A DNA stretch of 61,793 bases, counting the filler. It is 7 parts of 7 records of this genome, joined end to end, with 100 filler letters (N's around TTAATTAATTAA, not from the genome) between each part and the next. Parts side by side here need not be neighbours in the genome. Positions count along the whole stretch, not along the records: positions 45,656 to 55,550 come from SRR31156797_7027; 6 more parts are not named here. One strand, given 5' to 3'. Shown piece after piece: positions 6,624 through 55,718 of the stretch. A program made the position numbers and the translations under genes. The notes under the pieces are model-generated. The model worked only from the letters and a program-made list of their open reading frames with translations. It did no database searches and was not told the origin of the DNA. Every line of letters starts with the position of its first letter. Positions within the stretch are counted from its first letter, which is position 1.

Positions 6624-8167
6624 ATACTTAATTCCTTTTTAGCAAGTTCACTAACTTTTTCGAGCATATCATCAAAATTTTTCCCCCAACTATGAGGATT
6701 ATAGTGATAGTCTGTTATTGGAGTTTTTATTTTCTTTGCTTCATTTAGTGCTGCAAGAGCCTCAGCATTCTTGCCAAGCTGATGTAAATAAGCTGCCTTT
6801 TCGTAATATGGCTCTCTCCTATTTGGATGATATAACACATAATTATTTAGGCAAAAAAGAGCTAAGTCTGATTTTTTCTGAAATCTATAAACACTGAATT
6901 TCTGTTTATATAAAAATGACTTATCAGCATTATCATTTTCAAGTGCAGTATCTAACGCTTTTATAGCATCATCGCATCTGCCTACAGACAAATATTCTCC
7001 AGCCAAAAAGCTCCATGTCTTCCACACATCTGGTCTTTCTCTAGCCGATTGTTCCAGTAAATGCAAATAGGACGACCGGGGTTTCGTTGTATCCGGCTCA
7101 TGATATATCCAGAAATCATCTATCCAGCAGATTCTTTCGTCTTCCTTATACTCCAATATCTCATGAACTGGCAGCTTCCATAAATAACCATGTCTTACAT
7201 GAATCCTATCATGCCAATGAGCTGAAAAATTTTCAGCTGACCAAATTGTTTTAAACTTATGATAATACCTTGTAAACTTTATATCCCATTTTGCATCAAG
7301 AACTTCTCTCCAATGCTCCATAAAGTATTCATCTATGTCCAAGGAAATACATAAATCAATGTCTTTATCAATTAAGGACATTGCAACATTCCTTGAGTCA
7401 TCAAACCTCCAAGGCGAAACATGGATTTTATAATTTTTCAAATTAACTTCTGGATTGTCTTTTAGAAATTTATCAATAATATTATTAGTTTCATCTGTTG
7501 ACCCAGTATCACAAAGAATTATTTCATCTGCCTCTTTTATGGATTCTAGGCACTTTAGTATAAACTTTTCCTCGTTTTTATATATCCCATAAACTGCGTA
7601 TGTTGGTTTATTTATTTCTTGAACATCTTGCTCAGAATAAATTTTTTCATTATAACCAATGTACACACCTATCTCATTCTCAACATAAGATAAAGCTATA
7701 TTATCAAAAGTGGAAAGAACCTCTTCATTGCTCCAATCATCCTTCACGTGTTCTTCAAAAGGATTATTCATATATTCTTTCTGTTCATACTTTATAATAG
7801 GAATACTTATTAGAACGAACTCGCTATTCAAAAGCATCTTATTATAGACTTCTATAGCTTCTTCTTTAGTCATGTGTTCTAGAATATCTCCTAGAATTGT
7901 TATGCCATATGTTTGCTGTGGTTTAAATGTCCTGACATCTTCATTAATTGTGATGTCGTATTTATCATATAATTTATATAATTGAATATATGGTTCCCAA
8001 ATTTCAACACCTGTAAAAGTTGCATTTGGCAGTAATGGACGCAGTGTGGTGCAGTAGTTGCCTGCTCCTGGTCCAATATCCAATATTGTTTTGTTTTTAC
8101 AGTATTCAAATAGCTTTCTGATTATTCTTGTGGAAAATTGCTTTCCAGAAGATGAACTAAAAGGCAT
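6620..8167 (-). CDS. Class I SAM methyltransferase fused to GT2 glycosyltransferase and TPRs
   Basis: N-terminal ILDIGPGAG motif I, GVEI, GDILEH; then YKNEE, DTGSTD, DIDE, VHE, TPRs. GGAGG precedes ATG 8167. Confidence 0.85.
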   Translation of the reverse strand: MPFSSSSGKQFSTRIIRKLFEYCKNKTILDIGPGAGNYCTTLRPLLPNATFTGVEIWEPYIQLYKLYDKYDITINEDVRTFKPQQTYGITILGDILEHMTKEEAIEVYNKMLLNSEFVLISIPIIKYEQKEYMNNPFEEHVKDDWSNEEVLSTFDNIALSYVENEIGVYIGYNEKIYSEQDVQEINKPTYAVYGIYKNEEKFILKCLESIKEADEIILCDTGSTDETNNIIDKFLKDNPEVNLKNYKIHVSPWRFDDSRNVAMSLIDKDIDLCISLDIDEYFMEHWREVLDAKWDIKFTRYYHKFKTIWSAENFSAHWHDRIHVRHGYLWKLPVHEILEYKEDERICWIDDFWIYHEPDTTKPRSSYLHLLEQSARERPDVWKTWSFLAGEYLSVGRCDDAIKALDTALENDNADKSFLYKQKFSVYRFQKKSDLALFCLNNYVLYHPNRREPYYEKAAYLHQLGKNAEALAALNEAKKIKTPITDYHYNPHSWGKNFDDMLEKVSELAKKELSI

Positions 8168-8219
8168 ACTTACCTCCAATATTTTGTCTATATAATTTCT
8201 ATGAAATGAATACGAAAAA

Positions 8220-8246
8220 TAGACCCAGCAATAGTGCTAGGTCTAG
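8220..8246 (-). terminator. Rho-independent terminator after the collagen-like gene
   Basis: Minus strand TAGACCTAGCA-CTAT-TGCTGGGTCTA followed by TTTTT. Confidence 0.65.
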
Positions 8247-8259
8247 TTCGTTAAATATA

Positions 8260-8964
8260 CTAGACGTTATATCTAACTGAAGCTGAACTTAGATAGATAC
8301 TATCTTCATAGTTACCTGCTCCAAGAACTATTCTGTCAAATGAGAAGAATGCCCAATCACGAGGACTTGCAATACTATCATCTATAGTGAAAGTAAATAC
8401 ATAATGTCGTGCACTTGCTCTGCCGGCTGTACCTGTAGGTTCACTAACTGCTCGAATATCAGATGGTACGGCTGTTAGATATTGAGTACTTGCAGTACCT
8501 TGACCCCATTCTTCACCATCTGCTCTGAAGTCAGCTCTTAGACGTAATTGTACATCTCCATCGGCACTACCTGCATTTTCCAATAAAACATGAGCTTCTA
8601 CAGTCATATCATTAGCAGTATTGTATGAGTTTGGTACTTTGAATACAATATTTACGATTTCCATTTGAGCCTCTGGGCTTAATGGCATTTCCCAACCTAC
8701 AAATTTACCACCTCTTGCTGCGGGGTTAGGTGGTGCCACTGCAGAATCATATGCATCAAACTCTTCTCCAGTTACAGGAACATAGATTGTATCTCCGCCG
8801 ACTGAATTCATAGTCTTATACATATCAACAACAGTAAATACAAGTTCTACTTCATCAATAGGACCAGTAGGTCCAGTTGCTCCTGTTGGACCTGTTGCTC
8901 CTGCTGTACCGTCTGCTCCCGTTGGTCCTGTTGGGCCTGTTGCTCCTGCTGCGCCGTCTGCTCC
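8260..8964 (-). CDS. Collagen-like (BclA-type) protein, 5' truncated at contig end
   Basis: Frame stays open upstream of the ORF-track start: GADGAAGATGPTGPTGADGTAGATGPTGATGPTGP-IDEVELVFTVVDM then a ~190-aa globular domain. Confidence 0.85.
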   Translation of the reverse strand, partial: GADGAAGATGPTGPTGADGTAGATGPTGATGPTGPIDEVELVFTVVDMYKTMNSVGGDTIYVPVTGEEFDAYDSAVAPPNPAARGGKFVGWEMPLSPEAQMEIVNIVFKVPNSYNTANDMTVEAHVLLENAGSADGDVQLRLRADFRADGEEWGQGTASTQYLTAVPSDIRAVSEPTGTAGRASARHYVFTFTIDDSIASPRDWAFFSFDRIVLGAGNYEDSIYLSSASVRYNV

Positions 8965-8965
8965 C

Positions 8966-9065
8966 NNNNNNNNNNNNNNNNNNNNNNNNNNNNNNNNNNN
9001 NNNNNNNNNTTAATTAATTAANNNNNNNNNNNNNNNNNNNNNNNNNNNNNNNNNNNNNNNNNNNN
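8966..9065. other. Artificial contig spacer (N44-TTAATTAATTAA-N44)
   Basis: Identical spacer at 22072-22171, 28099-28198, 37420-37519, 45556-45655 and 55551-55650; stops in all frames; composition changes across the joins. Confidence 0.98.
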
Positions 9066-21987: not shown

Positions 21988-22171
21988 GTATGAGTATTGA
22001 GTCCCGAAAAACTCAAATTTACAATTTGAATTGTTTTTCGTGGATGCTCGAAAAATTATAAAAATCAGAGANNNNNNNNNNNNNNNNNNNNNNNNNNNNN
22101 NNNNNNNNNNNNNNNTTAATTAATTAANNNNNNNNNNNNNNNNNNNNNNNNNNNNNNNNNNNNNNNNNNNN

Positions 22172-28098: not shown

Positions 28099-28423
28099 NN
28101 NNNNNNNNNNNNNNNNNNNNNNNNNNNNNNNNNNNNNNNNNNTTAATTAATTAANNNNNNNNNNNNNNNNNNNNNNNNNNNNNNNNNNNNNNNNNNNNCC
28201 CCTGTGGGCGCCCGTGTTCCTGACAGTACTTATGGCGTCGCTATAAATCAAGTTAAGCTTTTTATCATTGGGATAATTGAACAATATGTAATTTTCATCT
28301 TGCCAATATTTATGTAAAATCGGATAACAATAGCTGAAATAATTTTGACACAGGATTTGAAAACGCAGCCTTAAAGAAAAAAGATAGTGTTTTCCTATCC
28401 CTTAATGCGGAAGGCATGTAACT

Positions 28424-37419: not shown

Positions 37420-37519
37420 NNNNNNNNNNNNNNNNNNNNNNNNNNNNNNNNNNNNNNNNNNNNTTAATTAATTAANNNNNNNNNNNNNNNNNNNNNNNNN
37501 NNNNNNNNNNNNNNNNNNN

Positions 37520-45554: not shown

Positions 45555-45655
45555 TNNNNNNNNNNNNNNNNNNNNNNNNNNNNNNNNNNNNNNNNNNNNT
45601 TAATTAATTAANNNNNNNNNNNNNNNNNNNNNNNNNNNNNNNNNNNNNNNNNNNN

Positions 45656-45673
45656 CCGGCCGACCTCGACCAG
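45656..45673 (-). promoter_or_regulatory. Putative bacterial SECIS hairpin
   Basis: mRNA CUGGUCG-AGGU-CGGCCGG begins 15 nt after the UGA; 7-bp stem with two G-U pairs and a GGU-containing loop. Confidence 0.7.
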
Positions 45674-45868
45674 TTTCGGTGAGATAATTCACATGGCACA
45701 GTCATTTGTGGGAAAGGTCTTATCCAATTGGGACATCATGCCGCCAATGGAGCTGGTTCTTTCCACAAGGTAGACGTAATATCCGGAATTGGCCATGTCC
45801 AGCGCAGCCTGCATGCCGGTAATGCCACCGCCCACAACCAGGACGGAACCGAGTTTTTCTGTCGACAT
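45656..45868 (-). CDS. hdrA: Heterodisulfide reductase HdrA-like flavoprotein N-terminus with in-frame TGA (predicted selenocysteine); 3' truncated; not in ORF track
   Basis: [59 protein letters not shown](TGA)[14 protein letters not shown] at 45689-45691. Confidence 0.92.
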
Positions 45869-45871
45869 AAA

Positions 45872-46747
45872 CTACTCCTGCGTTATAAAAGAGGTGACAT
45901 TCCCTATGGCCACCCGGTTTTTTTCAAGACCCAATTTCTTCTCGTCCACACCCATGCAAAATCCCAGCAGCTGGGCATAGAGTATGGAGGGGAGGGCGCC
46001 GCCGGTCGCACCATTGCCTGCCATCATGTTCTGAACCTGGTCAAACTGAAGCTGGCAGTAGGGGCAGGCGGTGCACAGGAAATCGGCCCCCGACTCACGG
46101 CCACTGTCCAGTTTCTTCCGGGTCAGATCCATGGAAATTTGGTCATTTACGCCCATTAAAGGTGCACCGCAACAATTGAGCTTTTCGCTCCAGTCCACGC
46201 TTTTTGCACCCGTCGCTTTTACCAGTTCGTCAAAGAGGGTCGGTGCCACCGGATCATCGAACTGGGTTACCTTACTGGGACGTAAGGCATGACACCCATA
46301 ATGGGTCGCGATTTTGAGATCTTTCATTTTTCTGGAGATCTTCTTTTTGAGATCAACAATTCCCACATCGTGGTACAAAACCGAAAGCATATGCTTGACC
46401 TCTACCCGGCCCTGATACGATAGATCTCTCGGTTTTAACAGATCGTTGATTTCCCGGCGCAGGGTCTCTTGCCGGCCAAGGATGTATTGGGCCTCTTTCA
46501 GGGTGCCGTAACAGCATTTGCACAGGGCCATAATGTTGACACCGTCACGTTCAGCCAGGGCGAGGTTACCGGCCGCGGAGAGAAGATAGGCCTTCCGGTC
46601 AACGTTTCTCAGCGGGTAGCCGCAACAGGTGAAATCGCGGTAATCGATTAACCCCACACCCAGACGGGACATGACCGCACGGGAGGCGGTTTCATATTGT
46701 TCAAGTCGGGCAGGAATATTGCAGCCCAGAAAAAAAGCGTATTTCAT
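45872..46747 (-). CDS. hdrB: HdrB-like protein (two CCG domains)
   Basis: FFLGCNIP, TCCG, LCKCC, HYGCH, NCCG, ACPYCQLQFD. Confidence 0.92.
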   Translation of the reverse strand: MKYAFFLGCNIPARLEQYETASRAVMSRLGVGLIDYRDFTCCGYPLRNVDRKAYLLSAAGNLALAERDGVNIMALCKCCYGTLKEAQYILGRQETLRREINDLLKPRDLSYQGRVEVKHMLSVLYHDVGIVDLKKKISRKMKDLKIATHYGCHALRPSKVTQFDDPVAPTLFDELVKATGAKSVDWSEKLNCCGAPLMGVNDQISMDLTRKKLDSGRESGADFLCTACPYCQLQFDQVQNMMAGNGATGGALPSILYAQLLGFCMGVDEKKLGLEKNRVAIGNVTSFITQE

Positions 46748-46799
46748 TGGTTCCCCTCAATAATGTCTCGCTTTTCGAAAAGCGCAGTGCGCAAAGGTC

Positions 46800-48554
46800 T
46801 TATGCGGCGACCCCCTGTCGGGGATCCTTGATGGCGATATTCTTCAGCTGGTAAAGGATATCCGTTACCTCCACCAGCTGTGGGCAGTGCTCCTGGCACT
46901 GGTAACATGTCACACAATCCCAGATCATGTTGGCGCCACAGGCCATATCCGTGAGGCCAAGGCCTAAGCTGCACATGATCTGGTGGGGCAGCAGACCCAG
47001 TGTTTCTTCAGGTTTTTCAGAGACAGCCACCACCGGACAAACGGTGGTGCAGTTCTGGCAACTGAAACAGGCTCTAAAGGTTTCAGCGTCGTAAGGGAGC
47101 ACGGCCCGGGATTTGGTATCGCCGTTAAAGCTCAGTGAATCGGTCTCCGCGGCAACGGGCCACCCCTTTAGAACCTCATGCCTGGCCATTTCAAGGGGCT
47201 TTGCATAATCATCCGGCGTCAAATTGGGTTGATTCAACCCGCGCACAAAAGAAAACCCGGACAGCATGAGGGTTTCACCTTTGGTGCCGCTCCCAATGAG
47301 GCCTTCCCTCACATTGAGCCACAGATCTCTTAAATTGATGCCCGAAGGGCACACCACGGTGCATCGATCACAATTGGTGCAGATATAGACGCCTTCCTGG
47401 AGGGCTTGACGTTCCGACGGGGAAAGGGATTTCTTTGCTGCCAGTTTTCTAATGGATTGCAACTTTTCCGACGGCAGGATGCAGTCGTTTCCAGTGGCAT
47501 CAAATGCGGGGGATGACGAACACCTGAGACTGCAGGTGCCGCAATGGGTACAGGCATCCAGTTCCAGCATTTGGCGGGTCAGGATATTGGCGGGGTGAGA
47601 ACGCTTTTTATCCATGACCGCATTGGCCATGAGGCTCAAAGGCGTTGTGATAATATGGAACATTTTGCTGAAGGGGAGGTAGGCCAACCCGATGAAGCAG
47701 GCCAGGATATGGATGACCCAGAGGAAATAGGTGGCTTCGGTATCATCAAGATACCGGGCCATGGGCCGCATCCCCTTTGAAAGGTTCACGCTGATAAACG
47801 CCCATGCCGGAACCGCATGGCAACTCTGGCAGCTCATTTCATGGAGTTCCCGCCCCTGGGTCAGCAGCTCCATTTCAAAAGGGCCTGCCACTTTAGGCGA
47901 GACCACCCCGAATTCTTCAACCCAGAAGGCTTCAAGTGCCCTCAACTCTTCTTCATCGTCCGTATCCGCATACTCTTCCACCATGCGCTGAAACTCGTTG
48001 TGGCTGATGATCTTGGCCCCTTCCAGAAAAAACCCGGTGACCATGATGACGGCTACAATCCAGACGGCATAGACGTCCATGGCGTTGGTGCGCAACCGCG
48101 GAACTTTTAGAACGCGCCGACGGTAAATGGCAATGGCCACACCTGCAAAAACCATTAAACCGAAGAGATTCCTCAAGAAAAGATAGGGATGGGCCGTGGA
48201 CGCATACTCCTCGAAAAGAAAATGGCCGGTTCCATCACCGTCAGCAAAAGCATGAATAAACAGCAGCGCCATAAACCCCACAAAGATCAGCATATGCATG
48301 ACCCAGCGCAGGGCGTCTTCCTTGAGGATTCGCCGCTGGAGGATGACATCCAGAATCAGGACCTTTATGAGATCCACAATCCGGGCGCTGAAAATGACGC
48401 CCAGTGTCCCTTTTAGGACTTGGGAAATTCGTTGTCCCGTCGAATAGGGAAGCTCCGGTCCGGTAATCTGTCCCGAAACCCAGGTGTAAAATTTGTAGCC
48501 GAATCCGACAATAAAAATTAACAAAGACCCGTACAGCAGCAGATCAAAAAACAT
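46800..48554 (-). CDS. NarI/HdrE-like cytochrome b plus CxxCH loop plus two HdrC-like 2x[4Fe-4S] domains
   Basis: Transmembrane helices with His pairs (WVMHMLIF...FIHAF; VIHILAC...SKMFHII); CQSCH; CTHCGTCSLRC, CTNCDRCTVVCP, CFSCQNCTTVCP, CVTCYQCQEHCP. Confidence 0.88.
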   Translation of the reverse strand: MFFDLLLYGSLLIFIVGFGYKFYTWVSGQITGPELPYSTGQRISQVLKGTLGVIFSARIVDLIKVLILDVILQRRILKEDALRWVMHMLIFVGFMALLFIHAFADGDGTGHFLFEEYASTAHPYLFLRNLFGLMVFAGVAIAIYRRRVLKVPRLRTNAMDVYAVWIVAVIMVTGFFLEGAKIISHNEFQRMVEEYADTDDEEELRALEAFWVEEFGVVSPKVAGPFEMELLTQGRELHEMSCQSCHAVPAWAFISVNLSKGMRPMARYLDDTEATYFLWVIHILACFIGLAYLPFSKMFHIITTPLSLMANAVMDKKRSHPANILTRQMLELDACTHCGTCSLRCSSSPAFDATGNDCILPSEKLQSIRKLAAKKSLSPSERQALQEGVYICTNCDRCTVVCPSGINLRDLWLNVREGLIGSGTKGETLMLSGFSFVRGLNQPNLTPDDYAKPLEMARHEVLKGWPVAAETDSLSFNGDTKSRAVLPYDAETFRACFSCQNCTTVCPVVAVSEKPEETLGLLPHQIMCSLGLGLTDMACGANMIWDCVTCYQCQEHCPQLVEVTDILYQLKNIAIKDPRQGVAA

Positions 48555-48939
48555 GAACCTATTCCTCACTTACTCCACACAAATAAAAGCGGCAAATCCG
48601 AATACCTCTTCGGTCGGCCTTGTCAGTGTGCCAAAAGAGCCTGACGCGATTTCCCAAAAAACCTTACCACGTAAAGGCTCGATCTATATAGGCGCCGGGG
48701 TTTTGTCAAGAGAAATTTTTCACGAAACCGCATCAGAATGACGCTCCTGCGGTACTTAAGCCCATTTTAACCCGGTCCTCCTAAAGTGAAAACCGGAAGA
48801 ACATTTTGTACTTATATGGCTTGATGGGAACAATTGCCAAGGGCAAACATGGGAGTTGAAAAAAAGATCGTCAATTGGTAAAAAGATCCACATCATCAAA
48901 AGTGAATTGACAAAACCTTTATTTTAAGGAGTTTCCGGT

Positions 48940-50676
48940 TTGGGCTGTGCCATCACATTACAGAATGCAATCAAGGGTTACACATTTGACCAGGATAAAA
49001 TTGTTTCACCTGAGGAGACCGTTAAGCGTTTCAAGAACAGGCTCAAAACAGTGAACCTGGATATCCTGGAAGAAACCGTTCGAATCGACAACGGCAGACT
49101 GGACATCCCCGTCTATTTCAGTGTCTGCGGGCGCGATGCCCTTGAAATCATCGGAACCAAGAAACAGATGGGGAAAGGCGGAACCCCCAGCCAGTCGGAG
49201 GCCAGTGCGGTCATGGAGCTGGCGGAGCGGTTCAGTTTTTTCAGTTTCTGGAAAGACCCCAAAAATTTTCGTCTGGATACCTACAAAAACGTGAAGAATG
49301 AGGCTTTGCCCTTTGAGACCATCGCCAAATCCGTACACGATGAGTCCGGTGAACTGGACAGGGCCCGGGAAATATTTGAAGACCTCCCCCTCAAATGGGC
49401 TCTTGGCTGCAATATGACCAAGAACCGGGAAATCCTGATCCCTTTTGACTGGTTTTTTGCCATTAATGAATTCAACGGACCGTCAGCCGGCAACTGTGTT
49501 GAGGAAGCCCTGAGCCAGGGGATCTGTGAATTGGTGGAACGGCATACGTCCTCCATTGTCAGCCGGGAGAAGGTGAACGTGCCGGCCATTGATCTCGATA
49601 CGGTGACCGATGCCCTGACACGTGAATTGATCGGGAAATTTAAAAATGCGGGAATCGAACTCTTTGCGTCGGATTTTTCTCTGAACATGGGCATTCCCTC
49701 CGTGGGGGTCCTGGCCTATGATCCCACCACATTCCCTCTAAAAAGCGAAATTGTCTGGACCGCCGGCACCACGCCCGACCCCCAGAAATCTTTGAGCCGG
49801 GCCCTCACCGAGGTGGCCCAGCTGGCCGGTGATTTCAATTCCGGGAGCAACTATGTGGCCAGCGGTTTACCCAAATTCCGGGATCTCGCTGAAGCCCGTT
49901 TCATCCTGAATCCGGAAACCACCATTCCCATTAAAAGCCTGCCGAACCTGGGCAACGACAACATCAGGGTGGAGGTGGAAAACTGCATGGGGGCTCTGAA
50001 CGCCAGGGACATGGAGGTGTTTGCCGTTGATGTGATGCACCCCCACCTTCAAATTCCGGCCTTTTATACCATTATTCCGGGCGCCCATTTCAGGGAGAGA
50101 GCCGTGGGGACCAGTGTGGGTATGTTTTGTGCCAAACTGATTGCCGAGTCTGACAACATCTTATGGCGTATTGACCGATTGACCCGAATGGATCGGTTGC
50201 TGCCCCATAAATATTACATTCAGTTTTTTCTGGGCTTGGCGCATATTTCCCTGCAGAACCCCCAAAAGGGTATTGAATTTCTTGAAGAGGCGCTGAAACT
50301 GGGTCCCAAACGGGAGGATATGCCGAGCATTTACTCCTATATGGGGATCTGCCTGCGGGATATGGAACAGTACCGGAAAGCCATTATCGTGCTCGAAAAA
50401 GGGGCTGAGATCGACAGTGAACGGACGGATATTCACAATCTCATGGGATTCTGTTATTTCAAGCTGAAAGAACATAAAAAAGCCATTGAGGCATTTCACA
50501 GGGTTCTGGAGCTGAACCCCGCATCCGCCATCGATTACGCCAATATTGCGTCCAATTACAGGGACATGGGAAACAGGGACATGGCCATCCGGTTCTATAA
50601 ATTTGCCTTGGAACTGGATGAGTCCATTGATTTTGCCAGGGACAATTTAAGAAAGCTGGAAGGGGAACAGGATTGA
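48940..50676 (+). CDS. YcaO-family protein with C-terminal TPRs
   Basis: MGKGGT...SAVMELAER, NGPSAGN...QGICELVERH, RALTEVAQ; four TPR-like repeats; AAGGAG RBS with TTG start. Confidence 0.9.
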   Translation: MGCAITLQNAIKGYTFDQDKIVSPEETVKRFKNRLKTVNLDILEETVRIDNGRLDIPVYFSVCGRDALEIIGTKKQMGKGGTPSQSEASAVMELAERFSFFSFWKDPKNFRLDTYKNVKNEALPFETIAKSVHDESGELDRAREIFEDLPLKWALGCNMTKNREILIPFDWFFAINEFNGPSAGNCVEEALSQGICELVERHTSSIVSREKVNVPAIDLDTVTDALTRELIGKFKNAGIELFASDFSLNMGIPSVGVLAYDPTTFPLKSEIVWTAGTTPDPQKSLSRALTEVAQLAGDFNSGSNYVASGLPKFRDLAEARFILNPETTIPIKSLPNLGNDNIRVEVENCMGALNARDMEVFAVDVMHPHLQIPAFYTIIPGAHFRERAVGTSVGMFCAKLIAESDNILWRIDRLTRMDRLLPHKYYIQFFLGLAHISLQNPQKGIEFLEEALKLGPKREDMPSIYSYMGICLRDMEQYRKAIIVLEKGAEIDSERTDIHNLMGFCYFKLKEHKKAIEAFHRVLELNPASAIDYANIASNYRDMGNRDMAIRFYKFALELDESIDFARDNLRKLEGEQD

Positions 50677-50730
50677 GGGACAATTCCTGTCCCATTTTCT
50701 TGAAAATTGCATCACAAAAAGAGGAAACAC

Positions 50731-51687
50731 ATGATCGAGGTTAATCATCTTACCAAATTTTTTGGAGACAAACTGGCGGTGGACGATATTTCCTTTACCG
50801 TGGAACGGGGCGAAGTGCTGGGATTTTTGGGACCCAATGCCGCGGGAAAGTCAACCACCATGCGCATGATTACCGGTTTTCTCCCCCCCTCCTCGGGGAC
50901 CGCCGCCATCGGGGGGTACGACGTCATCAAAAATTCCCTTCAGGCACGGAAAAAAATCGGGTACCTTCCCGAGAATGCACCGGCCTACCCGGATATGACC
51001 GTTACGGGTTTTCTGGAATTTATCGCCGGTATCAGGGGTTTTTCCGGGGCTTCCAAGAAAGCAAGAATCGAAGATACCCTTGCCCGCTGTTTTTTGACGG
51101 AAGTTCGATTTCAACCCATCAGTACCCTGAGCAAGGGATTTAAACAACGGGTCTGTTTTGCCCAGAGCATTATACACGATCCTGAATATCTCATCATGGA
51201 CGAACCGACCGACGGCCTGGATCCCAATCAGAAACACGAAGTGCGGGTCATGATTCGGGAAATGGCCCGGGATAAAACCATCATCCTTTCAACCCATATC
51301 CTGGAAGAGGTGGAGGCGTTGTGCTCAAGGGCCATCATCATTGCACGGGGCAGAGTTGTGGCGGATGATACCCCATCCGGACTGAAGGCCGAATCATCGC
51401 TCCATGGGGCTGTCCGTTTTACCATTTCTAAGGCCAACGGCAATGATCCCCTTGTTCACTTGAAGGGTATGCCCGAAGTTGAAAGGATGGTTGTGGTCTC
51501 TGAAAATGAATCCCAAACGACCCTTCGCGCTTTTCCAAAAGATCCGGTCCGCCCCCTTGCCAATGAAATCATGGGGCGTCTCGTCAAAAATGGTTTCACC
51601 ATCCATGAATTTCAAGTGGAAAGCGGCCGTCTGGATGAAGTCTTTCGAACGGTCACGAACGCCCATGCCGCGGAGGTGAAAAAATGA
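50731..51687 (+). CDS. ABC transporter ATP-binding protein (GldA-like)
   Basis: GPNAAGKST, LSKGFKQR, IMDEPTDGLDP, STH. Confidence 0.93.
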   Translation: MIEVNHLTKFFGDKLAVDDISFTVERGEVLGFLGPNAAGKSTTMRMITGFLPPSSGTAAIGGYDVIKNSLQARKKIGYLPENAPAYPDMTVTGFLEFIAGIRGFSGASKKARIEDTLARCFLTEVRFQPISTLSKGFKQRVCFAQSIIHDPEYLIMDEPTDGLDPNQKHEVRVMIREMARDKTIILSTHILEEVEALCSRAIIIARGRVVADDTPSGLKAESSLHGAVRFTISKANGNDPLVHLKGMPEVERMVVVSENESQTTLRAFPKDPVRPLANEIMGRLVKNGFTIHEFQVESGRLDEVFRTVTNAHAAEVKK

Positions 51688-52430
51688 GCGATTTTTTGAG
51701 AAACACGGCATGCATTTTAAAACGGGAGTTTACCGGGTATTTCGGAAGCCCGGTGGCATATGTCTTTATTGTTATTTTTCTGCTTCTGAGCGGTTTTTTT
51801 ACCTTTTCCCTCAGCAATTTTTATGAAATGGGCCAGGCGGATTTACGCGCTTTTTTTGAATGGCATCCCTGGATCTTTCTCTTCCTGATCCCCGCGGTGG
51901 CCATGCGGCTTTGGTCCGAGGAGCGACGGACCGGCACCATTGAACTGATCCTGACCCTGCCGGTGACCCTGCCCCAGGTGATCCTGGGGAAATTTCTGGC
52001 GGCCTGGCTGTTCATCGGTGTTGCCCTGGCGTTGACTTTCCCCATGGTATTGACCGTGAGCTATCTGGGGGATCCCGATCTGGGTGCCATTTTCTGCGCT
52101 TACTGCGGCAGCTTCTTCATGGCGGGTGCCTACCTGAGCGTGGGCAACATGACGTCGGCCCTGACCCGGAACCAGGTTGTCAGTTTCATCCTTTCCGTGG
52201 TCATCTGCCTCTTCCTGGTGCTGGCCGGATGGCCCCCCATTACGAACATTTTGTCGGGCTGGGCCCCCATATGGCTGGTGGATGTGGTATCCGGCTTCAG
52301 TTTTATGCCCCATTTCGCTTCCATGGAGCGGGGCGTCATCGATTTAAGAGACCTCTGCTATTATTTTTCGGTTATCTTTTTCATGCTCTTTGCCAACGGT
52401 GTGGTGCTTCAAAGCCGCAGGGCATCCTGA
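51684..52430 (+). CDS. ABC-2 permease (GldF-like)
   Basis: SPVAYVFI, MRLWSEERRTGTIELILTLP, GKFLA, RGVIDLRD. Confidence 0.9.
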   Translation: MSDFLRNTACILKREFTGYFGSPVAYVFIVIFLLLSGFFTFSLSNFYEMGQADLRAFFEWHPWIFLFLIPAVAMRLWSEERRTGTIELILTLPVTLPQVILGKFLAAWLFIGVALALTFPMVLTVSYLGDPDLGAIFCAYCGSFFMAGAYLSVGNMTSALTRNQVVSFILSVVICLFLVLAGWPPITNILSGWAPIWLVDVVSGFSFMPHFASMERGVIDLRDLCYYFSVIFFMLFANGVVLQSRRAS

Positions 52431-52449
52431 AAGACAAGGAGGATTTCCT

Positions 52450-54354
52450 TTGAAAAAAAGACAAAATACAGTTTTCAAGAAGGCCCTTCTTTCCGTAACG
52501 GGGCTGATGGTACTGTTTCTGATTCTGGTCCTGGTGAACATCATGGCCTCCTACGCCAATGTGCGCTGGGATGCCACCGAAGACAAAAGTTACTCCCTTT
52601 CCCAAGGGACCCGTTCCATCCTCGGTTCCATGACCCAGCCGGTGATCGTGAAATTTTTTTATTCCCAAAGCAATCCCGATATTTCGGCCAATATCAAGCT
52701 CTACGCGCGACGCGTGAAAGATTTCCTGACGGAATATGAACGGGAGAGCAACGGTATGATCAAACTGGAGATGATCGACCCCCGGCCGGATTCCGACGAA
52801 GAGGAATGGGCGCAGAAATACGGTCTTCAACCGGTCCAGGCACCCGGAGGAGAACCCATCACCTGTGGGCTGGTCTTTACGGCGGCGGACCAGGAGGAAA
52901 CCGTTGACTGGCTCGATCCATCCAAGGAACAGCTGCTGGAATATGATATTACGAGCATTATTCAAGGATTACAGAATCCGGAAAAGAAGACCGTGGGGAT
53001 TATCACATCCTTGCCGATTTTCGGATCGGGCGCCAGGGCGCCCCGGCCCGGTCAGCCTCCCACTCCCCAATGGATATTCGTAACGGAGTTGAAAAAAATC
53101 TATGACATACAACAAATCAAGCCGACCGTCCGTTTGATTGATCCGGCTCTCGACCTGCTCATGGTGGTATTTCCCAAAAACATGAACCCCCAATTGGAGT
53201 ACGCCATTGATCAGTACGTGCTTTCCGGCGGAAATGCCCTGGTTTTTGTGGATCCCCTGTGCGTATCTTACCGGTCCGGGAGACAGCAGGATTTCATGCG
53301 GTCGTCCGGAAGCGCCCTGGACCAGGTTTTCAAAGCATGGGGCGTGCGCATGGATTCCGCAAAGGCCATCGCGGATTACGGTCAGCCCACCCAGGTCCGC
53401 ACATCCAATACCACCACCGAGGAGAATCCCCTGATGATTTCCGCCAGGGGTGAGGCGTTTAATCGGGAAGATGTGGTTACCGCAGGGCTTGAGAGCATGC
53501 TCTTCCCGGTGGCCGGCGCCATTGTGCGAGATGGGGATAAAGGCACTGCCATTAAAGATTATTCATTTGAGACCTTGGTGGATTCCAGTGAGGACGCGGC
53601 ATTGGTGGATGCTTTCAAGGCGTTTTTGGGTGCCGATGCGGTGAAAAAAGACTTTGTTCCGGCAAAAAAGCGATTTAATGTGATTGTTCGCCTGCAGGGG
53701 ACCTTTAAGACCGCATTTCCGGATGGGCCCCCGAAACCGGAAAGTTCGGATATTCCCCCCGTGGATGAAACGAAATATCCGCAACTGAAGGAAGGGACGA
53801 AATCGTCCACCCTGGTGATTGTGTCCGATGCGGATATGCTGGCGGATAATTTTTATGTCCAGCGCCGCAATATTTTCGGACTTAACGTTTCGGAGATGTT
53901 TAACGACAACCTGAATTTTCTCTCCAATACCTCCGAGATCCTCACCGGGAGTGATGAACTCATAGGTCTCAGGTCCCGGGGGAAAATCGAACGGCCCTTT
54001 ACGGCGGTGCTCGAACTGAAAAAGCGTGCCAAAGCCCAGTGGCTGGGCAAGGAAAAGGAGTTGGTGCAACAAATTGAGCAAACCAACCAAAAACTGCAGC
54101 AACTGGAGAGCGAAAAAGACACATCCCAAAAAATGATTATCAGCCCCCAACAGGAAGCTGAAATTGCCAGGTTCAAGGAACAGAAACAGCAGATCAGCCG
54201 GGAGCTGAAACAGGTTCGAAAAAACCTGCGTGCGGAGATTGAAACCCTGGGGGCCACCCTTAAAGGGGTCAATATATTCCTGATGCCCTTGCTGGTCAGC
54301 ATCGTGGGTATCTGTTTTGCCGTTTATAGACAAAGGAAATTGAGGAGAACATGA
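52450..54354 (+). CDS. GldG-like ABC auxiliary component
   Basis: RWDATEDKSYSLS, LEYDIT, IDQYVLSGGNALVFVDP, C-terminal coiled coil and TM helix; GGAGG RBS before TTG 52450. Confidence 0.85.
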   Translation: MKKRQNTVFKKALLSVTGLMVLFLILVLVNIMASYANVRWDATEDKSYSLSQGTRSILGSMTQPVIVKFFYSQSNPDISANIKLYARRVKDFLTEYERESNGMIKLEMIDPRPDSDEEEWAQKYGLQPVQAPGGEPITCGLVFTAADQEETVDWLDPSKEQLLEYDITSIIQGLQNPEKKTVGIITSLPIFGSGARAPRPGQPPTPQWIFVTELKKIYDIQQIKPTVRLIDPALDLLMVVFPKNMNPQLEYAIDQYVLSGGNALVFVDPLCVSYRSGRQQDFMRSSGSALDQVFKAWGVRMDSAKAIADYGQPTQVRTSNTTTEENPLMISARGEAFNREDVVTAGLESMLFPVAGAIVRDGDKGTAIKDYSFETLVDSSEDAALVDAFKAFLGADAVKKDFVPAKKRFNVIVRLQGTFKTAFPDGPPKPESSDIPPVDETKYPQLKEGTKSSTLVIVSDADMLADNFYVQRRNIFGLNVSEMFNDNLNFLSNTSEILTGSDELIGLRSRGKIERPFTAVLELKKRAKAQWLGKEKELVQQIEQTNQKLQQLESEKDTSQKMIISPQQEAEIARFKEQKQQISRELKQVRKNLRAEIETLGATLKGVNIFLMPLLVSIVGICFAVYRQRKLRRT

Positions 54355-55475
54355 ACAAGAGGACTCTATTCATTTTACTGGTTGTTCTGGCGGTTCTGGC
54401 GGGAGTGGGAAGATCCATTTTTATGGATCGGCCCGATGATTCGGTTCGCAATGATGCCATGGGGACGGTGATCTTCAAGAGACTTCCGGCCAATGAGATT
54501 TCATCCATTTCCATGGATCGGCCCGATGATTCGGTCATGCTGGTGAAAGAAAAAGGCGTCTGGATCGTGCAAAACCGTTTTGGCTACCCTGCGGATTTTT
54601 CCAAAATCACCGACCTCATTCGAAAGCTGAAAAAGACCAAGGTGGGCCGAAATTTTCCGGCCTCCGAGTCGGTTTCAAAACGCCTTTCGCTGATTCCTCC
54701 CACGGATAAGGGCGCCGCCCGGGAGGATAAAGCCACTCGAATTCAAATGAAAGACAAGGGCGAAACCGTTATGGTCGATATCCTTCTGGGCAACACACGG
54801 AAAAGAGGAGAGAAGGGCGTGCCCGATTCCCAGTTTGTCATGCTGGCCGGTGGCACGGATATTTATCTGGTGGACCAGATTTTTTCTCCCTTTGACACCG
54901 CCGCCCCCTCATGGCTCCAAAAGAATCCCATCAAAGTAATCCGAGAAGATATTCAAAAAATTGCCTGTGTGGGACCTGATGGCACCGTGCGCTACAGTTT
55001 TGAGCGCGCCCAGGGGAAAGATTTTGCACTGGTCAGTCCGCCCACAAAGGGGACTGTTAAACAATCGGATTTAAACCGGCTTGCCGGTGCGTTGGCCGGG
55101 CTTGAGATTGAAGACGTGGCGGACCCTTCGAGTCCCCCTGAGTCCCTTGCAACCGGTATTTCACCCCGTCTTGATTTTACTCTTTTTGACGGTATCACCT
55201 ACCATGTTTATCCCGGGATTACCTGTTCACCGGGCATTCCCTGCTATGTGCGGATTCAGGTGGATTACAAGCGCCCGACTGCCGGAACGGCATCAGGGGG
55301 AGACGCATCGAAAGACAAGGAAAGTACCGAAGACAAAAGCGATGGCGCATTGGTGGCAAAAGCCAAGGAAATGAACGGCCGTCTGGCCCCATGGTTTTTT
55401 GTCGTTCCCCAACGGCAGCATCAGGCTTTCTTCACCACCCTGGGTGAAATGTTGGAAGACAAAACTAAGAAATAG
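54351..55475 (+). CDS. DUF4340-like membrane-anchored protein
   Basis: N-terminal TM helix; W...GYPAD motif; usual fourth gene of Gld-like ABC operons; ATGA overlap. Confidence 0.75.
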   Translation: MNKRTLFILLVVLAVLAGVGRSIFMDRPDDSVRNDAMGTVIFKRLPANEISSISMDRPDDSVMLVKEKGVWIVQNRFGYPADFSKITDLIRKLKKTKVGRNFPASESVSKRLSLIPPTDKGAAREDKATRIQMKDKGETVMVDILLGNTRKRGEKGVPDSQFVMLAGGTDIYLVDQIFSPFDTAAPSWLQKNPIKVIREDIQKIACVGPDGTVRYSFERAQGKDFALVSPPTKGTVKQSDLNRLAGALAGLEIEDVADPSSPPESLATGISPRLDFTLFDGITYHVYPGITCSPGIPCYVRIQVDYKRPTAGTASGGDASKDKESTEDKSDGALVAKAKEMNGRLAPWFFVVPQRQHQAFFTTLGEMLEDKTKK

Positions 55476-55718
55476 CGCGCTGAAAAATTCAGATGGATTG
55501 GTAGAAGTTTTTCGGATTAAAGGGTGCAGGGGACAGTTGTCAGGGGGCAGNNNNNNNNNNNNNNNNNNNNNNNNNNNNNNNNNNNNNNNNNNNNTTAATT
55601 AATTAANNNNNNNNNNNNNNNNNNNNNNNNNNNNNNNNNNNNNNNNNNNNTGAATCTTTTTTGAATTAAAAAATATATAATTCATTTTGACTTAGAAAAA
55701 CAATTGAGGTGATAAAGA

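Follow-up and report, generated by a model that had tools for sequence, protein, structure and literature searches.

The window analysed here, a stretch of 61793 nucleotides, holds on one of its seven joined contigs (SRR31156797_7027; 9.9 kb, positions 45656-55550) three closely packed Hdr-type genes on the minus strand. The first of these encodes what we call the anchor, a single chain in which a five-helix cytochrome b domain, with an acidic insertion that carries the motif CQSCH, is followed by two iron-sulfur domains; hdrB and the beginning of a selenocysteine-containing hdrA come after it. We favour, with modest confidence, the view that the three products form a complex that would act as a wire through the membrane, joining periplasmic cytochromes c and/or menaquinone, in either direction, to an HdrB-HdrA module in the cytoplasm. 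This anchor complex belongs to the membrane-bound Hdr-like complexes, as a variant of them that is both widespread and unnamed. Its design is common in sulfate-reducer-type bacteria, and seemingly it has never been studied. The elements reported by a first-pass annotation of this DNA (a four-His cytochrome b, an acidic loop with CQSCH, four CxxCxxCxxxC motifs, and then hdrB and a Sec-hdrA) were all found at the positions given for them.

The anchor gene (46800-48569, minus strand) was recognized as an open reading frame with Pfam and NCBIfam matches, a ribosome-binding site and a start codon. It encodes 589 aa when read from the GTG at 48569, or 584 aa from the ATG at 48554, and the latter, with GAGGAA upstream of it, is the likelier start; residues are numbered here in the 589-aa frame (GTG 48569). 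Among 8000 sequences scored, 2909 are homologues of the anchor at E<=1e-3. Residues 1-310 (47640-48569, minus strand) make up a five-helix membrane domain of the NarI fold, as judged from an AF2 model compared with solved structures by VIA and Foldseek. The Pfam family Nitrate_red_gam (PF02665) matches at 36.9 bits, against a cut-off of 22.9, and covers residues 96-188 only; two Pfam 4Fe-4S dicluster domains are found as well. The model of residues 1-330 (pLDDT 93.7, pTM 0.90) aligns by VIA with EtfD (9OJN_A) at Z 14.3 and a root-mean-square deviation of 4.4 over 243 residues, and with NarI (1Q16_C) at Z 11.8. Foldseek gives a probability of 1.00 for both structures, with E 3.6e-4 for 9OJN. 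The full-length model was weak in its iron-sulfur half (pLDDT 63.7), and only the N-terminal model was used.

The domain has four histidines, H92, H106, H287 and H305, from which none of 60 aligned sequences departs. An alignment of 79 sequences keeps H106 and H305 without exception, and H92 and H287 almost so. By analogy with NarI topology, H92 on the cytoplasmic side of transmembrane helix 2 (TM2; codon 48294-48296, minus strand, as are the three that follow) would pair with H305 on the cytoplasmic side of TM5 (47655-47657) as ligands of the proximal haem b, and H106 on the periplasmic side of TM2 (48252-48254) with H287 on the periplasmic side of TM5 (47709-47711) as ligands of the distal one. 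The two histidines of TM5 stand 18 residues apart, as do H187 and H205 in NarI. Model and alignments together describe a five-helix domain of the NarI/EtfD fold, whose two His pairs are predicted to suffice for two b haems.

Between TM4 and TM5 lies an insertion of 93 residues (187-279; 47733-48011, minus strand), modeled as four short helices at pLDDT 95-98. It is strongly acidic, with a net charge of -11.7 (mean of 60 sequences), and its largest 19-residue Kyte-Doolittle (KD) value is 0.88. The same mean for loops 1 and 3 is +4.9 and +4.3, and for loop 2 it is -2.1. For SaEMO, a solved homologue, the topology passages of the preprint (10.64898/2026.08.18.745454) put the N-terminus and the TM2-3 loop in the periplasm and the C-terminus in the cytoplasm. 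The iron-sulfur domains of the anchor must contact HdrB and HdrA, both of which are free of a signal, and for this reason they are placed in the cytoplasm; TM5 therefore runs inward and the TM4-5 loop comes to lie outside. The charge pattern, the lack of any hydrophobic segment within the loop and the topology of NarI and EMO all point the same way: we are highly confident in the prediction that CxxCH faces the periplasm and not the cytoplasm, where its presence would have spoken against the first-pass proposal.

The motif itself, CQSCH at residues 247-251 (C247, C250 and H251; 47817-47831, minus strand), is a predicted covalent haem-c site recognized from its codons and from conservation. Exactly one CxxCH is present in each of 120 listed homologues. 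Conservation was counted over 119 rows, comprising the query and the 118 homologues of more than 500 aa, after two below this length had been set aside: C247, C250, H251 and M196 are found in 119/119, and H243 in 117/119. Residues 1-330 were scanned as well against 1.84 billion cluster representatives (50% clusters), with 730 matches at E<=0.001. Among the best 150 of these 730, 100 span residues 190-290; the other 50, either fragments or matches that fail to cover the loop, were left uncounted. An aligned CxxCH is retained by 98 of the 100 loop-spanning representatives, Met196 by all 100 and His243 by 66. When 79 sequences with identities as low as 28% are aligned, no columns stay free of variation except L102, H106, M196, W216, C250, H251 and H305. 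The conservation of both the motif and a distal ligand, on which the first-pass reading depended, is thus borne out. Chance or artefact as the source of CxxCH was also considered, and is ruled out by this conservation.

Because His243 is variable (66/100), Met196 (codon 47982-47984, minus strand) is the likelier candidate for the sixth, distal ligand, and the c haem is likely to be held by His251 and Met196. That the haem is covalently bound at CxxCH we consider probable from the sequences. The cytochrome c maturation family PF01578 scores above its cut-off in 3/3 operon-bearing genomes (those of loci L007, L008 and L047). Metatranscriptomes contain short contigs that are 85-95% identical to the operon, in three runs from two studies; these come from relatives, and to be found in such libraries is no proof of transcription. 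One of them, of 293 bases over 47791-48083, covers the codons of both CxxCH and Met196.

The remainder of the chain bears four CxxCxxCxxxC motifs (C340-C350, C397-C407, C501-C511 and C552-C562), and their 16 cysteines (340/343/346/350, 397/400/403/407, 501/504/507/511 and 552/555/558/562) are all invariant in 60 sequences. We read them as two cytoplasmic dicluster domains that would house four [4Fe-4S] clusters. The first domain (residues 333-415; 47325-47573, minus strand), defined by Fer4_8 over residues 336-411 and by the invariant cysteines, is of the SdhB or HdrD-N-terminal type and weakly matches the HmcF, DsrK, TmcB and GlpC models, in each case near the N-terminus. The second (residues 494-582; 46824-47090, minus strand) is HdrC-like: its profile picks out HdrC chains of known structure (8RVU_c, E 1.2e-14), and it aligns with positions 13-94 of the qmoC model and positions 2-78 of the HdrC model.

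The next gene, hdrB (45872-46747, minus strand), encodes 291 aa with two CCG domains (PF02754 twice). Its product aligns end to end with the solved 5ODC_B (E 4.5e-62), with all ten cysteines of the two non-cubane cluster sites in register, and scores 253.6 bits against TIGR03288, for which the equivalog cut-off is 345. We assign it to the HdrB family on these comparisons; a CoB-CoM activity is left unassigned by the score.

Of hdrA the contig holds the initial 71 codons (45656-45868, minus strand), with the start of an FAD-binding Rossmann domain, and the contig end cuts the gene. Residues 9-71 match the HdrA2 model from position 141 on. An in-frame TGA at 45689-45691 (minus strand) is read as selenocysteine at residue 60, within a CAM-U-I motif. 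The complete counterpart in the related locus L007 (12687-15707), 1007 aa long, also has Sec at residue 60; it contains ferredoxin domains and a pair of FAD-binding modules, and it scores 954 bits against HdrA2 (cut-off 1100) in three stretches, again from position 141. HdrA is, on this evidence, predicted to be a double module of ~1007 aa without the usual N-terminal domain. The Sec-flavoprotein of the first-pass annotation keeps its Sec TGA, and it is not the standard HdrA. At the TGA position, 30 of 120 homologues of the L007 protein, called at full length, have Cys; in the other 90 the called start lies only 2-46 residues after that position, which is what gene callers would produce on taking a Sec codon for a stop. 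In L007 a hairpin lies 18 nt downstream of the TGA; considered as a selenocysteine insertion sequence (SECIS), it is no better than shuffled sequence (z 0.19), and the Sec reading therefore rests on the alternation of Cys and Sec.

The first bases of hdrA are common property. Positions 45656-45750 are shared, at ~85-90% identity, by up to 23 other contigs (the count at 45722) of the probable source run. In that run a counterpart contig stops at the same point, and many other contigs match just the first ~95 bases of hdrA. The contig ends at the start of hdrA probably because many hdrA paralogues or strains share that part and broke the assembly there.

Relatives of the anchor are frequent among GTDB species genomes. 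One is encoded in 350 of 364 matched stretches, and 80 of these were kept, which amount to 79 distinct loci. Their labels are Desulfobacterales, Desulfatiglandales, Desulfarculia and the like, and the assemblies of two are labelled Spirochaetota/Leptospirales. One of the loci, L009 (79% identical), belongs to NaphS2, a strain that can be cultivated. Of the 79 loci, 76 have CxxCH; it is missing from L017 and L018, where there is no loop, and from the incomplete L037. An hdrB follows the anchor within 600 bp in 74/79. Three of the five loci without one end within 195 bp, and the other two, L037 and L061, have 10 kb free of hdrB. The hdrA of the 74 hdrB-bearing loci is a contiguous double module of ~1005 aa in 38, of an odd form in one, cut by the contig end in eight, and split in 19, where an N-terminal fragment is followed by a gap; the remaining eight are without hdrA, six of them with <=215 bp of room.

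The split form is well seen in L043 (12696-18836), in which a 131-aa Sec-containing head of HdrA is followed by NuoE-like and NuoF-like genes and then by a NuoG N-terminal part fused to the rest of HdrA. Of the 19 split loci, 15 have such NuoE/F/G-like genes inside the gap (L013, L032, L034, L043, L046, L047, L049, L054, L055, L058, L060, L063, L069, L071 and L079); in L014, L015, L016 and L040, a NuoE/F-like match was not detected in the gap (~2 kb). The break falls within the inserted ferredoxin domain, as though the gene had taken up an NADH-dehydrogenase module there. By sequence similarity, the NuoE/F/G-like genes of this sister operon would link the family to NAD(H). They stand in place of the mvhD, flx or fdh genes that had been anticipated beyond the operon, none of which is found beside it in L007; the genes after hdrA there are unrelated (GNAT, a TPR protein and a Liv-type transporter).

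The anchor varies too. In L017 (9998-11512, Desulfobacterium sp. N47) and L018 (9998-11506, a Desulfatitalea metagenome-assembled genome) it is ~500 aa long and TM4 is joined to TM5, and both loci share the operon of hdrB and double hdrA. The CxxCH-bearing NarI module occurs in other surroundings: with Fer4_8 and two CCG domains in P0128, P0143 and P0200 (711-716 aa), a layout like that of HdrF/EtfD; as a loop-bearing membrane domain with dicluster domains in P0203 (684 aa); and as the membrane part alone in several proteins of 310-383 aa, some of which may be fragments. The TM4-TM5 insertion appears, from these comparisons, to be a module, and the haem-c module is not unique to this operon, as CCG-fused and shorter proteins have it also. 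P0128, P0143 and P0200 would likewise carry a periplasmic haem c. In the source annotations the homologues are called 'hypothetical', '4Fe-4S dicluster domain-containing' or 'nitrate reductase gamma'.

A working model can be drawn from these parts. The insertion would bind one His/Met-ligated c haem, attached by the cytochrome c maturation system of the cell and positioned above the distal b haem. Electrons would travel along haem c, the distal haem b (H106/H287), the proximal haem b (H92/H305), the four [4Fe-4S] clusters and HdrB/HdrA, and the chain would join periplasmic c-type cytochromes and/or the menaquinone pool to the cytoplasmic flavoprotein. In a flavin-based bifurcation or confurcation this membrane branch would most likely supply the high-potential leg, and ferredoxin, joined in the NuoEF-bearing sister operons by NADH, would be on the low-potential side. 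HdrB might relay electrons in the manner of the CCG domain of EtfD/EMO, or it might reduce a protein disulfide such as that of DsrC. The single-chain wire from a periplasmic haem c to a Sec-flavoprotein, as proposed in the first-pass annotation, fits every feature that could be tested, and the attachment of the haem stays an inference. Flavin-based bifurcation by the complex, argued by analogy, is a tentative proposal that may well prove wrong. Rather doubtful, in our estimate, is the broader proposal of a periplasm-coupled bifurcation, in which the cytochrome c pool (possibly with extracellular or interspecies electrons) would serve as a leg of a double-HdrA bifurcation by way of a tri-haem (two b, one c), four-cluster polypeptide, and the haem-c NarI module would be a general and hitherto unrecognised membrane anchor of the Desulfobacterota, whether HdrABC-like, HdrF/EtfD-like or stand-alone.

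Several observations weigh against this model. The haem c is assigned from CxxCH plus Met, the motif is missing in 2 of the 100 loop-spanning representatives, and the loop matches no cytochrome c family in Pfam; an Atlas search with the loop returned its own family only, at scores <=0.83. The loop-less members show that the complex can work without haem c. HdrA is a 71-codon stub in the window, L012 and L026 have hdrB with no hdrA following despite 2.7-3.8 kb of room, and L037 and L061 lack any Hdr-like gene within 10 kb. Bifurcation and its substrates are argued by analogy, as the flanks of the L007 operon hold no gene for a donor or an acceptor (mvhD, flx, fdh).

Other explanations of the same parts must be considered. 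Like EtfD/EMO or Qmo, the complex could be a simple quinone-linked oxidoreductase that does not bifurcate. A cytoplasmic donor (ferredoxin, or NADH by way of HdrA/NuoEF) would then exchange electrons with menaquinone where the distal haem sits, possibly in a proton-motive redox loop, and haem c would do no more than add a relay or form a lid over the quinone site. The nearest solved fold, EtfD 9OJN, the existence of loop-less members and the fusion of the haem-c module to CCG domains in an EtfD/HdrF-like layout are all consistent with such an enzyme, and EMO, in the sections of the preprint devoted to its function, uses the same parts for methylmenaquinone transfer without bifurcation (10.64898/2026.08.18.745454). 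We nevertheless think it unlikely: the double HdrA with its two FAD sites is a hallmark of bifurcating Hdr and would be needless for simple quinone reduction, and a lid explains poorly a periplasmic CxxCH and Met that are near-universal. A compact conduit for sulfate respiration, similar to Tmc/Hmc, would instead take electrons from cytochrome c3 (fed by hydrogenase or formate dehydrogenase) through haem c and HdrB to the DsrC disulfide/trisulfide, with HdrA doing no more than adding or removing a second stream. The parts list resembles that of Tmc, the first iron-sulfur domain weakly matches the N-terminal parts of TmcB, HmcF and DsrK, the HdrB retains all ten cysteines of the disulfide-reducing site and the hosts are Desulfobacterota; for HotSeep-1, the relevant section of PMC10553843 proposes HdrA plus a haem-c/CCG protein on the way toward DsrC. 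Set against these points, the TmcC, TmcB, HmcF and DsrK models reach 21-28 bits where their cut-offs are 240-750, no dsrC or cytochrome c3 gene stands beside the operon in L007, and two loci come from assemblies labelled Spirochaetota/Leptospirales. We regard such a conduit as improbable.

A different doubt concerns the cofactor, since CxxCH could be a structural disulfide, the site of another metal, or the source of a His ligand to a non-covalent extra haem, for which the twin haem of SaEMO provides a model. The haem c is a deduction from sequence, the loop is unlike the known cytochrome c families, and SaEMO, as its preprint describes it in the parts dealing with haem content, is a NarI-type anchor with an unexpected extra haem at the distal site (10.64898/2026.08.18.745454). 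This explanation must accommodate the retention of the whole five-residue pattern in 98/100 representatives with an invariant Met alongside, the periplasmic position of the site, where haem lyases act, and the cytochrome c maturation proteins encoded by the host genomes. We judge it the least probable of these alternatives.

How the HdrA-type flavoenzymes of sulfate reducers and syntrophs are linked to the membrane and to periplasmic cytochromes is an old gap in anaerobic bioenergetics, for which the anchor family is a concrete and widespread candidate, encoded in 350/364 GTDB stretches and with the motif in at least 98 clusters at 50% identity. The prediction is sharp: a NarI-type cytochrome b should bear one covalent His/Met haem. 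Should this be true, the NarI/HdrE/EtfD family would gain a new cofactor arrangement beside the twin haem of EMO, and there would be a handle on whether cytochrome c or quinone at the membrane can drive bifurcation. Present annotations ('nitrate reductase gamma', '4Fe-4S dicluster protein', 'hypothetical') mask the haem-c feature.

On the contig, a gene for a YcaO-domain protein with C-terminal TPR repeats (48940-50676, plus strand) is divergent from the operon. It keeps this position in 8 of the 9 closest loci (L001-L003 and L005-L009; 83-88% identity) and not in farther ones. In L007 the YcaO gene is separated from the operon by a gene for a 446-aa AAA_21 ATPase (7679-9019), whose top NCBIfam match, to a methylation-associated defence ATPase, scores 85 bits where 420 would be required. 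Four more genes (50707-55475, plus strand) encode an ABC ATPase, an ABC-2 permease, a GldG-like ABC_transp_aux/DUF7088 protein and a DUF4340 protein. The window as a whole (1-61793) joins its seven contigs by spacers of 44 N, 12 letters and 44 N (8966-9065, 22072-22171, 28099-28198, 37420-37519, 45556-45655 and 55551-55650). Its G+C content runs from ~28% to 53%, and the seven contigs may not all derive from one organism.

The anchor can be compared with several known systems. No curated model reaches its cut-off for the anchor and no solved structure shows the loop. The first-pass expectation that no characterised complex has such an architecture agrees with these results: the qmoC, TmcC, DsrK, HmcF and HdrC models all stay far below their cut-offs, and EtfD 9OJN has no such loop. 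A search of the full-text literature, main texts only, returned no description of the anchor subunit or of the operon, and a prior mention is possible.

EtfD/EMO resembles the anchor most closely. Both place an N-terminal NarI-fold cytochrome b before an HdrC-like dicluster domain in one chain, 9OJN is the best structural match, and some relatives of the anchor carry CCG domains within the chain, as EtfD does. In EtfD/EMO, however, the CCG part is fused and EtfAB is the partner, whereas the anchor has a separate HdrB, a second dicluster domain and a double-HdrA partner, and the 93 residues of its TM4-5 insertion fall outside the match to 9OJN. The EtfD/EMO/HdrF layout is thus not present here even though the fold matches: the anchor is without a CCG domain, HdrB is separate and the contig is without etf or glp genes. 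EMO itself holds b haems only, as a stacked twin haem in SaEMO and a single haem in MsEMO, and its NarI-, HdrC- and HdrB-type parts serve transfer from electron-transfer flavoprotein (ETF) to methylmenaquinone without bifurcation, as given in the corresponding parts of the preprint; those parts make no mention of a c haem, and 'cxxch' and 'covalent' occur 0 times in the main text (10.64898/2026.08.18.745454). The name HdrF was given to EtfD-type proteins of Desulfobacterium autotrophicum, with CCG fused and EtfAB or GlpAB as partners, in the portion of PMC2702500 that treats them.

QmoABC shares with the operon an HdrC-like iron-sulfur domain fused to a membrane cytochrome b, in the company of HdrA-type flavoproteins. 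The qmoC model (NF038018) scores 76.2 bits against a cut-off of 300, and only its iron-sulfur part matches. That part is N-terminal in the model and C-terminal in the anchor, so the order is reversed; in addition, Qmo is without HdrB, and apr genes are absent here. Qmo is not known to carry a haem c. The soluble, bifurcating HdrABC and FlxABCD-HdrABC have in common with the operon the HdrB cysteines, the HdrC-like domain, and the HdrA FAD site with its Sec/Cys motif. The operon differs from them in its membrane anchor, in an HdrA that is doubled and without the N-terminal domain, and in having no MvhD, Flx or Fdh adjacent (L007). The HdrC models TIGR03290 and NF041779 score 58.3 and 22.9 bits against cut-offs of 160 and 350, as befits an HdrC-like domain and not HdrC, which is a separate subunit of ~190 aa.

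In the BamDE(F)GHI part of class II benzoyl-CoA reductase (Bam), NuoEFG-like subunits stand beside one that resembles HdrBC and a large one, containing Sec, that resembles HdrA. Sister operons with NuoEF would have a parts list of the same kind; what sets Bam apart is that neither a BamB/C-type catalytic subunit nor a membrane-free layout is seen here. BamE is a selenoprotein according to the pertinent part of PMC5109826. The HotSeep-1 proposal of an electron route from cytochromes c to DsrC by way of HdrA and a haem-c/CCG protein (Murali et al. 2023, PMC10553843) likewise links c haems of the periplasmic type to an HdrA/CCG module in a sulfate reducer. It is set apart by its description, the passages on it placing the c haems and CCG in one protein and mentioning no NarI-type fusion.

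Tmc, Hmc and Dsr share with the operon the combination of a periplasmic haem c, a membrane cytochrome b of the NarI type and a cytoplasmic CCG protein. In TmcABCD, HmcABCDEF and DsrMKJOP the c haems belong to multihaem subunits of their own, and an HdrD-like protein supplies the CCG part. Here, in contrast, the cytochrome b is predicted to hold a single haem c in one of its own loops, and the complex includes an HdrA flavoprotein. The TmcC, TmcB, HmcF and DsrK models score 21.1, 21.7, 28 and 23.1 bits against cut-offs of 240, 735, 750 and 400. By analogy, the Hdr complex described here plausibly works like these transmembrane complexes.

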